A DNA stretch of 64,000 nucleotides from contig CAVPSB010000049.1 of NCBI GenBank assembly GCA_963708025.1, forward strand, positions 128,001 to 192,000, in the 5' to 3' direction. Positions 33,492 to 36,648 of the stretch are shown piece after piece. The notes beneath the pieces were generated by a model, which worked only from the letters and a program-made list of their open reading frames with translations, was not told the DNA's origin and made no database searches. This DNA comes from an uncultured Candidatus Rokubacteria bacterium (GTDB lineage: Bacteria; Methylomirabilota; Methylomirabilia; Rokubacteriales; DASRDR01). Numbering within the stretch: the stretch's first letter is position 1; each line of letters opens with the position of its first letter. The position numbers and the translations under genes were made by a program.

Positions 33492-34439
33492 ATGCACAGG
33501 CTCACGGCCGTCACGCTCGCCCTCGCCGTCCTGACCGGCTGCAGCGTCGTCTCGATCGACCTCACCCCGCCCGTTCGCCCGCTGAAAGAGAGCACGCTGG
33601 AGGGCAAGGGACGGGACAAGATCCTCGTCGTCGAGCTGGCCGGCGTGCTCGCGGAGGAGCCGATCTTCACCTTCGAGTCGAAGCCCGCGGTGCCGCTGCT
33701 GGCGCGCGTGCGGGAAGAGTTCGAGAAGGCGGCCGATGACGACCACGTGAAGGCCCTGGTCCTCCGCATCAACAGCCCGGGCGGGACGGTCACCGCCTCC
33801 GACATCCTCTACCACGAGATCAAGCGCTTCAAGGCTCGCCGGAAGATCCCCGTCGTGGCGGCGGTCATGGACGTCGCCGCCTCGGGCGGCTACTACGCGG
33901 CGCTCGCCGCCGACCGGATCGTCGTCCACCCGACCTCCATCACGGGCTCCATCGGCGTGCTCATGCTCACCGTGAACTCGAGCGGGCTGCTCGAGAAGAT
34001 CGGCGTGAACGCGAGCTACATCACCTCGGGGCCCCGGAAGGACATGGGTAGCCCGTTCCGAGCTCTCACGCCCGATGAGCGGGCGATCTTCCAGGAGGTC
34101 ATCGATCGCCTCTACGGCCGCTTCATCGCCCTGATCGTTCGCGAGCGCCGGCTGGACGAGGCCCGGGTCCGGAGCTTCGCCGACGGCCGCATCTACACCG
34201 CGGGGGAGGCGCTCAATCTCGGCCTCGTCGATCAGATCGGCTACCTGGAAGAGGCCATCGCGCTGGCCCGCGAAGCGGCCGGGCTCGGCGAAGCCAAGGT
34301 AGTGACCTACCACCGGCCCCGCCAGTACCGGGCGACGATCTACTCCGGCGGCGAGGCGCCGCCGATCCAGTCGGGGGTGGCGGACCTCGCCCGGCTGGTC
34401 ACGTCGGGACCCCGCTTCCTCTATCTCTGGTGGCCGTGA
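33492..34439 (+). CDS. sppA: Signal peptide peptidase SppA (S49), lipoprotein
   Basis: LTGC lipobox; LRINSPGG, AASGGYY, TGSIGV, DGRIYT. Confidence 0.9.
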   Translation: MHRLTAVTLALAVLTGCSVVSIDLTPPVRPLKESTLEGKGRDKILVVELAGVLAEEPIFTFESKPAVPLLARVREEFEKAADDDHVKALVLRINSPGGTVTASDILYHEIKRFKARRKIPVVAAVMDVAASGGYYAALAADRIVVHPTSITGSIGVLMLTVNSSGLLEKIGVNASYITSGPRKDMGSPFRALTPDERAIFQEVIDRLYGRFIALIVRERRLDEARVRSFADGRIYTAGEALNLGLVDQIGYLEEAIALAREAAGLGEAKVVTYHRPRQYRATIYSGGEAPPIQSGVADLARLVTSGPRFLYLWWP

Positions 34440-34564
34440 CGGCCACCGGCGGGCCCCAACCGGGGCCGCCAGATGGGCGTGGGCATCGAACCCCGGATCG
34501 GGGTTTCCCATGACTCGGGCCGACCCCCTTGACACGGTTCGACGGCGCGTGATAACCGTCAGAC

Positions 34565-34656
34565 GGGCCCTGGGGAGTCGGACACCGACCTGAGAGTCGG
34601 AGAGGGCACGGCGCGCCGCAGCCGCGCCAGCCCACCGGATTGCTACTTCAGGGCTC
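34565..34656 (+). ncRNA. Candidate structured ncRNA of unrecognised family
   Basis: TTGACA at 34529-34534 with a weak -10 near 34551. Terminal helix GGGCCCUGGGG/CUUCAGGGCUC encloses hairpins CCGAC-CUGAGA-GUCGG and GGGC-GGCGCG/CGCGCC-GCCC. Confidence 0.55.
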
Positions 34657-34673
34657 GCGTGAGCGCGCTTCGG

Positions 34674-34717
34674 GGGCGGCAGGCCCTGGTAGGTCAGACG
34701 GGGATCGCCTGCCGCCC
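34674..34717 (+). other. 11-bp perfect stem-loop after the ncRNA candidate
   Basis: GGGCGGCAGGC...GCCTGCCGCCC; no U-tract. Confidence 0.5.
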
Positions 34718-34732
34718 ATCCCCCCCCACCGC

Positions 34733-34846
34733 GCCGATAACCTTCGCATCGCGGCGTCCTCGGCTCGGCGCCCATCCTCGGCGTACCAGGGCGTACGCCT
34801 CCGGTGGGCGCCGGCCTGCGTCCTTGCGCTGCTCGGCTCTCGGCGC
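34733..34846 (+). repeat. Repeat family B copy lacking both nested modules
   Basis: GCCGATAACCTTCGCATCGCG...ATCCTCGGCGTACCAGGGCGTACGCCTCCGGTGGGCG...CCTGCGTCCTTGCGCTGCTCGGCTCTCG. Confidence 0.75.
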
Positions 34847-34944
34847 GGTAGCCCCCCGCCGGCATTCCATCCGTCCCGGCCTATCAGCCCTGATCGGCAA
34901 TTCCACCACGCTCCCGAAGATCCCTGCAGTCGCTCCTATTCCGC

Positions 34945-35040
34945 TCCCTCTCCCTTTCAGGGAGAGGGTTGGGATGAGGGTGTCCAGGGGTGCGTGGTTG
35001 CCCCCTCGCCCTGACCCGCTCCCAAAGCGGGGGAGAGGGG
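34945..35040. repeat. REP-like CCCTCTCCC/GGGAGAGGG doublet
   Basis: CCCTCTCCCTTTCAGGGAGAGGGTTGGGATGAGGG followed by inverted partner CCCTCGCCCTGACCCGCTCCC...GGGAGAGGG. Confidence 0.7.
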
Positions 35041-35122
35041 AAATGCCCCTTCGCGCATTCGCCGATTGGGGTTGGGCGTCCTCGGCGAGCGCCGTGTTCG
35101 CGCGGGCTTGACCGAGTTGCCT

Positions 35123-35905
35123 TCAGCGGCCGGTCCAGCGGGGGGGGCGCTTGGCCAGGAAGGCGGCCACGCCCTCCTGGGCGTCCTCCGAGCGGGCGAC
35201 GATGGTCAGCAGATCCCGCAGGTACGGCAGCGCCTTCCCGTGGTCCAGCTCCAGCGCGGCGTAGAAGGCTTCCTTGGCGATGGCCACCACCGCGGGACTG
35301 TAGCCGGCGACGGTCCGGGCCATCGCCTGCACGGTGGCCTCGAGCTCGGCCCGCGGCACCACCTGGCTCACGAGCCCGATCGCCGCGGCCTCGCGGGCGG
35401 GCAGCTCGGCGCCGGTCAGGACGAGCTGGAGGACCCGCTTCGGGGAGGCGGCGCGGAGGATCGGCGCCATGACCATGAGCGGCAGGAGCCCGAGCTTGAT
35501 CTCCGGGAGACCGAAGATGGCGTCCTCGGACGCCACCACGACGTCGCAGGCCGCCGCCAGCCCGCAGCCGCCGGCCAGTGCGTACCCGTGCACCTGCCCG
35601 ATCACCGGAGTCCGCATGCGGGGAATGCCGTCCAGGATCCGGGCCAGGCCGGCGTACTGCTCCCGCGCCTCCAGGATGGGCGCCTCGCGAAACATCCCCT
35701 TGAGGTCGGCCCCCGCGCAGAACGCCCGGTCACCCGCGCCGCGGAGGACGATGGCCCGCGCCTCGGCGTCGGCATCCAGGGCGTCCAGGGCATCACCCAG
35801 CTCCTGGATGAGGGTCCGGTTGAGCGCGTTCCGCGCCTCCGGCCGGTTGAGCGTGATCGTCGCCACGCCGTCCCGGATCTCCACCAGCAGCGTCTCGTAC
35901 GTCAC
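35123..35905 (-). CDS. Enoyl-CoA hydratase/isomerase
   Basis: LNRPEARNAL, AFCAGADL, AGGCGL, LPEIKLG; GTGA overlap with the Nudix gene. Confidence 0.9.
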   Translation of the reverse strand: MTYETLLVEIRDGVATITLNRPEARNALNRTLIQELGDALDALDADAEARAIVLRGAGDRAFCAGADLKGMFREAPILEAREQYAGLARILDGIPRMRTPVIGQVHGYALAGGCGLAAACDVVVASEDAIFGLPEIKLGLLPLMVMAPILRAASPKRVLQLVLTGAELPAREAAAIGLVSQVVPRAELEATVQAMARTVAGYSPAVVAIAKEAFYAALELDHGKALPYLRDLLTIVARSEDAQEGVAAFLAKRPPRWTGR

Positions 35906-36543
35906 GGAGTCCGTCCCGGCACACCGGCCGCCCCGAACGCCACGCTCAGGAACTCCTTGAGGATCCGCGCGGTCGCACCCCAGATCACGTCGTCGCCGTA
36001 CCGCACGAAGACCACCGGGCGGCGCCGGCCGTCGCGCTCCCACTCTTCCTCCCGGTAGGCGGCCGGGTCGAGCAGGCAGCGGAGCGGGATCTCGAGGATC
36101 CGCTCGATCTCGCGGCCGTCCGCCCGCAGCGACGGTGCGGTCGCGCAGAGGCCGATGACGGGCGTGATGACGAAGCCCGTCGTCGCGGTGGGGACGTCAT
36201 CGAGGAGACCCAGCACCTCGACGGTCGCGGGGTCCAGCCCGACCTCCTCCCGGGCCTCGCGCAGCGCGGTCTCGACCCGCGAGCCGTCGAAGGTCTCGAC
36301 GAGACCCCCCGGGAAGGCGAACTGCCCCTTGTGGTGGGGCACGGTGTCCGTCTTCTTCGTGAAGACGAGGTGCGGCTCGTCGCCATGATAGACGAGCAGC
36401 AAGAGGACCGCGGCCGGCCGGCAGTCGTCCGGCTCGGCCACCTGGCGGCACCGACCCTCGAGGGCCTGACGCAGGCGGCGCCGCATCGCCTCGACGTCGA
36501 GCTCCACCTGAATGTTCGGGCCAGGGGGGAGCTGCGCGCTCAT
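35902..36543 (-). CDS. Nudix CoA pyrophosphatase (NudL/PCD1-like)
   Basis: AAVL, HKGQFAFPGG...ALREAREEVG, IWGATA. Confidence 0.88.
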   Translation of the reverse strand: MSAQLPPGPNIQVELDVEAMRRRLRQALEGRCRQVAEPDDCRPAAVLLLLVYHGDEPHLVFTKKTDTVPHHKGQFAFPGGLVETFDGSRVETALREAREEVGLDPATVEVLGLLDDVPTATTGFVITPVIGLCATAPSLRADGREIERILEIPLRCLLDPAAYREEEWERDGRRRPVVFVRYGDDVIWGATARILKEFLSVAFGAAGVPGRTP

Positions 36544-36648
36544 CCAGATCGCCGCGGCGCCTCGGGCCTCCGGCAATCGGTGCGCCGCGTCCCTCCGGGC
36601 GCCCCGGTCCCCCCTCCGGGTCTCTCCTCGCTCACGCGTCCCGGGCTT

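Follow-up and report, generated by a model that had tools for sequence, protein, structure and literature searches.

What lies in the 683-nt intergenic gap (34440-35122) between an S49/SppA peptidase gene on the + strand and an enoyl-coenzyme A (CoA) hydratase gene on the − strand of an uncultured member of Rokubacteria, an uncultivated, large-genome phylum of soil and groundwater? The gap belongs to a 64,000-nt stretch of DNA (hereafter the window: positions 128,001 to 192,000 of GenBank contig CAVPSB010000049.1, assembly GCA_963708025.1), and coordinates without a prefix are those of the window. An original prediction, made from the letters of the window, had placed in this gap a promoter-associated structured RNA at 34529-34717 of the + strand. 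The source genome (G000) comprises 8.17 Mb and is 99.67% complete, and the candidate lies on its contig C49. We conclude that the candidate represents a real, free-standing family of structured small RNAs (sRNAs) that was previously undescribed, and we have little doubt that it is a genuine, independently transcribed structured RNA gene. Its most likely way of working is in trans.

Fold and covariation of the RNA

The candidate consists of promoter-like boxes followed by an 88-nt three-way-junction fold (34567-34654), a small hairpin, and an 11-bp terminal hairpin. Of the taxonomic families named below, f1 is the source genome's own, and f2 and f4 are other families of the same order. The parts are as follows:

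34529..34534, + strand: −35 box TTGACA, invariant in 22 of 22 collected homologous sequences
34550..34558, + strand: TG-extended −10-like box TGATAACCG, with TG at 34550-34551 and the hexamer TAACCG at 34553-34558, 18 nt after the −35 box
34567..34578, + strand: 5′ strand of the outer helix P1, GCCCUGGGGAGU (predicted fold; helix 1 in alignment A9 is 97.0% paired, with 4 of 13 pairs changed on both sides)
34579..34584, + strand: junction J1/2, CGGACA, conserved as YCGG(A/C)C(G/A) in alignments A5, A6, and A9
34585..34600, + strand: hairpin P2, CCGAC-CUGAGA-GUCGG, 100% paired in 21 sequences
34604..34633, + strand: arm P3, GC-rich, GGGC...GCCC around GGCGCGC/GCGCGCC; a variable arm that differs in sequence and length in every genus
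34642..34654, + strand: 3′ strand of P1, GCU-A-CUUCAGGGC (predicted fold)
34656..34667, + strand: small hairpin P4, CGCG-UGAG-CGCG (predicted fold; f1 only, weak, four sequences)
34674..34717, + strand: 11-bp hairpin P5, probable terminator or 3′ end, f1 only; arms GGGCGGCAGGC and GCCUGCCGCCC, pairing 34674-34684 with 34707-34717

P1 comprises nine plus three pairs around one bulged A (34567-34578 with 34642-34654). The outer helix of the original prediction is therefore real, with 12 pairs and a bulge in place of the 11 bp first drawn, and the three G-U pairs claimed for it are in place (G34573-U34648, G34574-U34647, and U34578-G34642). The predicted CUGAGA-loop hairpin and GC-rich arm correspond to P2 and P3, which meet P1 in a three-way junction, and the predicted second 11-bp stem is P5. 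Two of the five P2 pairs are compensatory, with CCGAC/GUCGG in the source genome versus CCGGU/ACCGG in f2. The P2 loop follows the consensus C-Y-N-A-G-N, occurring among the 22 sequences as CUGAGN (13), CUAAGA (one), CCUAGA (four), and CCAAGC or CCGAGC, which have no U (four), and the purines after P2 are also invariant. We set aside a UCGG/CCGA pairing through an ACA triloop in the P2 region because compensatory changes back CCGAC/GUCGG, and a pairing of the P2 loop (CUGAG) with the P1 3′ strand (CUCAG) was rejected because the CCUAGA and CCAAGC variants do not retain it.

The core ranges from 76 to 153 nt among the relatives. Seven sequences, including that of the source genome, are short forms (76-88 nt) in which P3 is a simple hairpin, unrelated in sequence, and 15 are long forms (137-153 nt) in which P3 is a branched domain of about 95 nt with a rod-like arm, P3a, that contains two internal AG/AG loops and ends mostly in loops of GNRA type. 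On the 3′ side of the core, the place of P4 is taken in G006 by CGUAGC-CUC-GCUACG. Both arms of P5 are invariant in G000, G001, and G006, and the 5′ arm has one change in G005. The f4 sequence carries the hairpin GGGGGGC-UCU-GCCCCCC in place of P5, and f2 sequences have no such hairpin; the GC hairpins of f1 and f4 are not followed by a clear U tract. In f2, a pyrimidine- and U-rich tail comes directly after P1, with 5-8 U in the next 12 nt in the 11 long forms and 2-5 in the four short forms. That three different 3′ solutions occupy one and the same place suggests that they serve termination.

The decisive support for this fold is comparative. In the MAFFT alignment A6 (15 sequences), 92.0% of the cells were paired and 10 of 52 pairs had changed on both sides; none of 500 shuffles scored as high, and slid controls reached 35-53%. 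In the model-fitted alignment A9 (21 sequences), 95.7% of the cells were paired and 18 of 52 pairs, amounting to 57 cells, had changed on both sides, again with no shuffle of 500 as high and with slid controls at 31-56%. Compensatory pair changes thus went beyond the controls in both alignments. Three further MAFFT alignments (A3, A4, and A7) put the P1 3′ strand in the wrong place or have the source sequence offset by one base and were left out of these counts. Folded on its own, the source sequence does modestly better than chance, with −98.5 kcal/mol on the + strand (z −2.32, four of 200 shuffles folding as well) and a z of −1.24 on the − strand.

The original prediction had further held that the fold works on the + strand, and the alignments agree: pairing in A9 is 95.7% as given versus 88.0% as the reverse complement, and its cells include 80 of G-U versus 12 of A-C. 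One U-G pair is invariant in all 15 long forms. The full model, R2, which was built from the given strand, scored 136-174 bits on that strand versus 26-29 bits on the reverse at the same three loci. A natural variant in sequencing run X18 carries T34647C and T34648C, which turn both G-U pairs into G-C, together with C34654T, which turns the outermost P1 pair from G-C into G-U. This P1 variant is tolerable only on the + strand.

Distribution, probable promoter, and hints of expression

A DNA search found orthologues in three other f1 genera (G001, G005, and G006), and a pattern search yielded a fifth member in f4 (G023). Scanning genome contigs with the pattern gave four loci, of which three were true; a Sciscionella locus (L053) has neither promoter nor P1 and looks like a chance match. 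The same scan of metagenome contigs gave 49 loci, five of them true (L059, which equals L095, together with L088, L092, and L094), and the other 44, without promoter and P1, were judged by eye to be chance. We then counted carriers with two models, R1 (promoter plus 5′ half) and R2. Of the 151 genomes searched in the order, 20 carry a clear R1 homologue (E ≤ 2e-6), namely four of f1 (the source genome included), one of f4, and 15 of f2; R2 detected 17 genomes, each with a single match, and added no new member. Weak R1 matches (E 0.0016-0.1) occurred in 13 further genomes, but R2, run with filters off on ten loci from these genomes (L135-L144) and on L153, gave at most 14.3 bits and confirmed none of the loci so checked. 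Beyond the order, 151 genomes sampled from the phylum yielded a single weak match, in G084, which R2 did not confirm; G084 and G038 are unpublished genomes and enter only as non-members (plus that one match). Within the source genome the candidate is single copy, and an nhmmer search with the 5′ core turned up no other, which disposes of the concern that it might be one of many dispersed copies. The RNA is visibly absent from the gaps downstream of sppA in G002, G010, G011, and G013, and the G003 contig ends 120 nt past sppA. The RNA family extends over one order of Rokubacteria, and the 3′ 11-bp hairpin is specific to f1.

The perfect TTGACA noted ahead of the fold is part of a larger pattern. 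CTTGACA, the TA of the −10 box, and a spacing of 17-18 nt are retained in all 22 sequences, while the sequence of the spacer is free to vary. The −10 box reads TGnTAnnnn in f1 and f4; in f2 it is TAGGGT, TACGGT, TAGCGT, or TAGGTT after a 17-nt spacer. The RNA is thus probably transcribed from its own sigma-70-type promoter. P1 starts 6-10 nt past the −10 box, and the transcript would therefore begin where P1 begins or a few bases ahead of it, which in the source genome puts the likely start at about 34564-34567. Transcription would stop after P1 and the U-rich tail in f2, or after an extra hairpin (P5 in the source genome), giving in the latter a transcript of about 150 nt at roughly 34565-34719.

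We looked for this transcript in public sequencing runs. Twenty runs hold part of the stretch, six of them recorded as RNA, and we examined four runs, one of raw reads and three of RNA contigs, the latter drawn from three studies; runs X17, X19, and X20, which hold small shares of the stretch, were left out of the comparison. Each of the three metatranscriptome contig runs has one contig of 151-204 nt on the candidate, within 34530-34780:

run X6: 151 nt, 34578-34719, 0 differences; fits the predicted ends and stops 2 nt after P5
run X14: 164 nt, 34530-34693, 1 difference; starts inside the promoter
run X18: 204 nt, 34577-34780, 5 differences; extends into the neighboring repeat

The X6 contig opens with nine loose letters, presumably an adapter tail. 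None of the three runs has a contig lying on 34300-34409 (the end of sppA) or 34781-34900; other contigs contribute two pieces of 32-33 nt, at 34410-34442 and 34729-34760. The original call for expression is answered in part, in that short metatranscriptome contigs lie on the RNA in three of three runs but give neither its strand nor its ends. The distribution suggests that the RNA is more abundant than its neighbors, although such contigs prove neither transcription, strand, nor ends.

Identity and proposed mode of action

The RNA matches no family that we could find, as had been predicted. With Rfam 15, the whole window gave no match at the gathering score, and the gap at E ≤ 10 gave only 14-19-bit chance matches of miRNA or CRISPR type. 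Five homologue loci gave no match at E ≤ 1, and six further loci gave five matches at E ≤ 5, none of them on the RNA, so that in 12 loci in all no Rfam match falls on it. ARAGORN found no tRNA or tmRNA gene in 34300-35200, and both identities were rejected for the candidate. A classical riboswitch or 5′ leader is unlikely too, in keeping with the earlier remark that no credible + strand gene follows: of the 16 loci annotated with Pfam, 15 have a convergent gene next, and the lone co-directional gene, a PIN gene in G006, sits behind an inserted repeat. With no conserved co-directional gene, the RNA is not a 5′ leader.

Resemblances to well-known RNAs nonetheless deserve comment. Like the thiamine pyrophosphate (TPP) riboswitch, the candidate has a CUGAGA string beside a hairpin in a junction closed by P1; unlike it, the string here is a varying hairpin loop (CCUAGA or CCAAGC in relatives), and no downstream gene is controlled. 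RF00059 gave no match even at E ≤ 10 on the gap, where no co-directional gene follows. The 6S RNA is what the candidate would be by our account: free-standing, of an abundant type, provided with its own promoter, highly folded, with its 5′ end in a long closing helix, and active through a protein partner; the candidate differs in having no central bubble or rod shape, no RF00013 match, and a patchy distribution in contrast to the near-universal one of 6S RNA. The source genome has its 6S RNA gene elsewhere, outside the window, at C31:384562-384746 (RF00013, 105.5 bits), and a second RF00013 match on C2 (39.8 bits), neither of them on the C49 candidate. The relatives' P3a resembles the signal recognition particle (SRP) RNA, or 4.5S RNA, in its hairpin form, its symmetric internal loops, and its end loops, most of which are of GNRA type, and it has CAGGUCAG in common with E. 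coli 4.5S RNA; in addition, the candidate adjoins a signal-peptide peptidase gene. RF00169, however, does not match the candidate. G006, G010, G227, and G232 have canonical SRP RNAs (65-74 bits) elsewhere in their genomes, and three of them (G006, G227, and G232) also carry the RNA; the arm concerned is dispensable. In the source genome itself we found no RF00169 match, and blastn and nhmmer with the highly similar SRP RNAs of four relatives found nothing; the likeliest cause is an assembly gap. That the candidate is a divergent copy of a housekeeping RNA (SRP or 6S) or of a known riboswitch (TPP, from the CUGAGA string) therefore has hardly any probability. The rod-like arm, the signal-peptide gene, and the missing RF00169 match in the source genome speak for it, but none of the 12 loci has an Rfam match on the RNA, SRP and 6S RNAs reside at other loci, the arm is missing in seven of 22 sequences, and 131 of the order's 151 genomes yielded no member of the family.

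The closest company is that of the orphan noncoding RNAs such as raiA, OLE, HEARO, and the Breaker/Weinberg motifs, which are clade-restricted, multi-helix, supported by covariation, and found in a conserved setting, as the candidate is; the candidate matches none of those within Rfam 15 and is limited to one order of Rokubacteria. It is a new family of a known kind of thing, an orphan structured bacterial sRNA. Our full account, namely a single-copy gene for a stable, compact, GC-rich, and highly folded noncoding RNA with its own promoter and a junction bearing an invariant hairpin, acting in trans, we consider somewhat better than an even bet. P1 would join the 5′ end of the RNA to the 3′ end of its core and enclose the junction with P2 and the variable P3, a clamp that could shield both ends from nucleases, and J1/2, the P2 loop, and the purines after P2 would form a contact surface. 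We favor a protein partner (in a ribonucleoprotein or as a sponge) over a messenger RNA (mRNA) reached by loop-loop pairing because conservation tracks structure and scattered bases with no contiguous seed, and because peripheral arms come and go. Action in trans through a protein is nevertheless a judgement, to which we give a chance a little short of even.

The setting of the gene invites other explanations. Riboswitch-controlled antisense RNAs reportedly exist, as in the Listeria B12/AspocR case, where, as may hold here, a structured RNA has its own promoter, points toward the 3′ end of a convergent metabolic gene, and through its termination decides whether antisense RNA arises. By analogy, the promoter would fire at the 3′ ends of the convergent CoA genes, P1 would be the stem of a conditional, riboswitch-like terminator, and ligand- or protein-dependent read-through would yield antisense RNA against the NUDIX or hydratase mRNA. 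In all 10 Pfam-checked f2 loci the stop codon of the convergent gene indeed lies close to the P1 3′ end, at most 7 nt inside it and at most 17 nt past it, and the link to the convergent NUDIX gene outlives the loss of sppA from the upstream side in G005, G023, and L059. The U-rich stretch after P1 in the 11 long-form f2 RNAs would suit a terminator, and a junction with invariant bases is aptamer-like. Against this, P1 has 11-13 GC-rich pairs and no anti-terminator pairing that would compete with it turned up; in f1 and f4 an additional hairpin stands apart, over 100 nt ahead of the convergent gene; insertions (repeats, PIN, HNH) stand before that gene in G000, G006, and G001, so that spacing is unconstrained there; and the large P3 domain is lost in seven of 22 sequences. 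We regard the antisense switch as unlikely. A more specific version, in which the P1-enclosed junction is an aptamer, possibly a CoA or acyl-CoA sensor, that gates a P1/U-tract terminator and hence antisense transcription into the CoA pyrophosphatase and enoyl-CoA hydratase genes, is very improbable; we know of no natural riboswitch for a CoA or acyl-CoA ligand class.

About as unlikely as the antisense switch is a base-pairing role in trans, in which the RNA would act on mRNAs as an antisense sRNA by a kissing contact of the P2 hexaloop. The loop is exposed on a GC-rich stem and holds a Y-U-N-R tetranucleotide, a kind of loop that speeds antisense pairing, in 18 of 22 sequences (CUGA in 13, CUAA in one, and CUAG in four), but three of its six positions vary between genera, four sequences lack the U (CCAAGC, CCGAGC), six bases define no specific target, and an elaborate conserved junction with arms is unusual for base-pairing sRNAs. 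The structure might instead be a spacer, that is, a bidirectional terminator or insulator between convergent genes with incidental promoter-like boxes. It always lies between convergent gene ends, tightly so in f2, and P1 is a strong hairpin on either strand; the −35/−10 spacing, however, is kept in 22 of 22 sequences while the intervening sequence varies, internal hairpins, junction bases, and wobble pairs, for which a terminator has no need, are conserved with a + strand preference, and no U tract lies behind the structure on the − strand. This we consider improbable, clearly more so than a kissing loop. That the RNA is part of something mobile or repeated, for example one end of a miniature inverted-repeat transposable element (MITE), is scarcely credible: a 120-nt repeat does begin 12 nt past P5 in G000, is also found behind the RNA in G006, and occurs in part in G005, but the RNA is single copy in the source genome as opposed to 192 and 41 blastn matches for its two neighboring repeats, it is present without the repeat in G001, f4, and f2, and its synteny is kept across the order.

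Several observations weigh against our preferred account, a free-standing sRNA acting in trans. The choice of protein over base pairing is our judgement. The family was not found in 131 of the 151 genomes of the order, including 15 of 15 of genus g5, which belongs to f1 as well; the RNA is therefore not essential. The −10 box is weak in the source genome, and a simple scan for consensus promoters and terminators gave no site in 34300-35300; on the promoter it was silent because the −10 hexamer (TAACCG) lacks the final T, and it was silent also at P5, behind which there is no U tract. Since A9 was fitted to the model, its counts lean toward structure, and the 20 carrier genomes are mutually related, so that shuffle counts overstate the support. 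As to expression, contig ends agree with the predicted RNA in one of three runs only (X6), Logan contigs show neither strand nor ends, DNA carry-over into RNA libraries is possible, and the raw-read run X24, with 0 reads, amounts to no test.

Orphan structured RNAs number in the hundreds, and the candidate alone adds one more. It could nevertheless serve in RNA family libraries and genome annotation, given its fixed synteny, its defined promoter, support for some 50 base pairs, and the hints that it is expressed. A literature search, whose coverage did not extend to subscription journals, found no paper on noncoding RNAs of Rokubacteria or riboswitches of Methylomirabilota, and an unspecific search on RNA motifs and sppA likewise gave nothing relevant. 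Should the RNA bind a protein or metabolite, it would give access to a regulatory circuit of a phylum known from metagenomes only, and its tight convergent packing against genes of CoA metabolism provides a concrete, testable hypothesis.

Neighboring genes and repeats

The genes around the RNA in the window are:

33492..34439, + strand: sppA, encoding an S49 signal peptide peptidase; upstream of the RNA and co-directional with it (Pfam PF01343, E 3.3e-46; TIGR00706, 215.7 bits)
35123..36043, − strand: enoyl-CoA hydratase gene, convergent (Pfam PF00378, E 1.2e-61)
35902..36576, − strand: NUDIX gene, CoA pyrophosphatase-like (Pfam PF00293; NF007980, 130 bits versus a cut-off of 134); these limits are those of the longest open reading frame, and the true start is probably further in

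The usual gene order is CoA-transferase (−), sppA (+), RNA (+), and then convergent NUDIX and enoyl-CoA hydratase genes. Among the 16 Pfam-examined loci, sppA lies upstream on the same strand in 11, with a DoxX gene between sppA and the RNA in G001, and the next gene downstream is a convergent NUDIX or enoyl-CoA hydratase gene in 14. The others are G001, where a convergent HNH/DUF222 gene comes next, and G006, where the inserted co-directional PIN gene precedes the hydratase gene. Across loci the NUDIX proteins score 130-133 bits with NF007980. In four f2 genomes (G227, G232, G241, and G025), the NUDIX stop TGA falls within the complement of the P1 3′ strand (GCCCTGAGG; L124:1683-1689, L126:1683-1689, L122:1685-1691, and L133:1387-1393), and the protein gene and RNA gene therefore share 7 nt at their tails.

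The gap itself had been described as a gene-free interval of about 680 bp. Its length holds at 683 nt and it contains no protein gene by Pfam, the + strand open reading frames of 34440-35122 giving no match, but about 260 nt of it consists of two dispersed repeats. The first (34729-34848, 120 nt) has the inverted ends CCGCGCCGA ... TCGGCGCGG; 107 of its 192 blastn matches in the source genome are at least 80 nt long, and dozens of copies with 73-92% identity occur in genomes of f1, f2, f3, f4, and f5. The second (34928-35070, about 143 nt) contains the hairpin CTCCCTCTCCCTTTCAGGGAGAGGG and has copies in G006, G012, G025, G030, and G039.

Mobile-type insertions also lie right behind the RNA in relatives, namely the PIN-domain toxin gene at L030:2115-2492 (G006) and the DUF222/HNH endonuclease gene at L032:18-1355 (G001). 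Together with the repeats of the source genome, they suggest that the spot behind the RNA is an insertion-tolerant site. Just past the sppA stop, GC-rich hairpins occupy 34425-34470 and 34488-34512: GGTGGCCG-TGA-CGGCCACC (over the stop), GGCGGGCCCC-AACC-GGGGCCGCC, and then AACCCCG-GAT-CGGGGTT-TCCC. These are probably the sppA terminators, upstream of the RNA promoter, and the last of them (AACCCCG-GAT-CGGGGTT) is partly conserved in G005 and G006.

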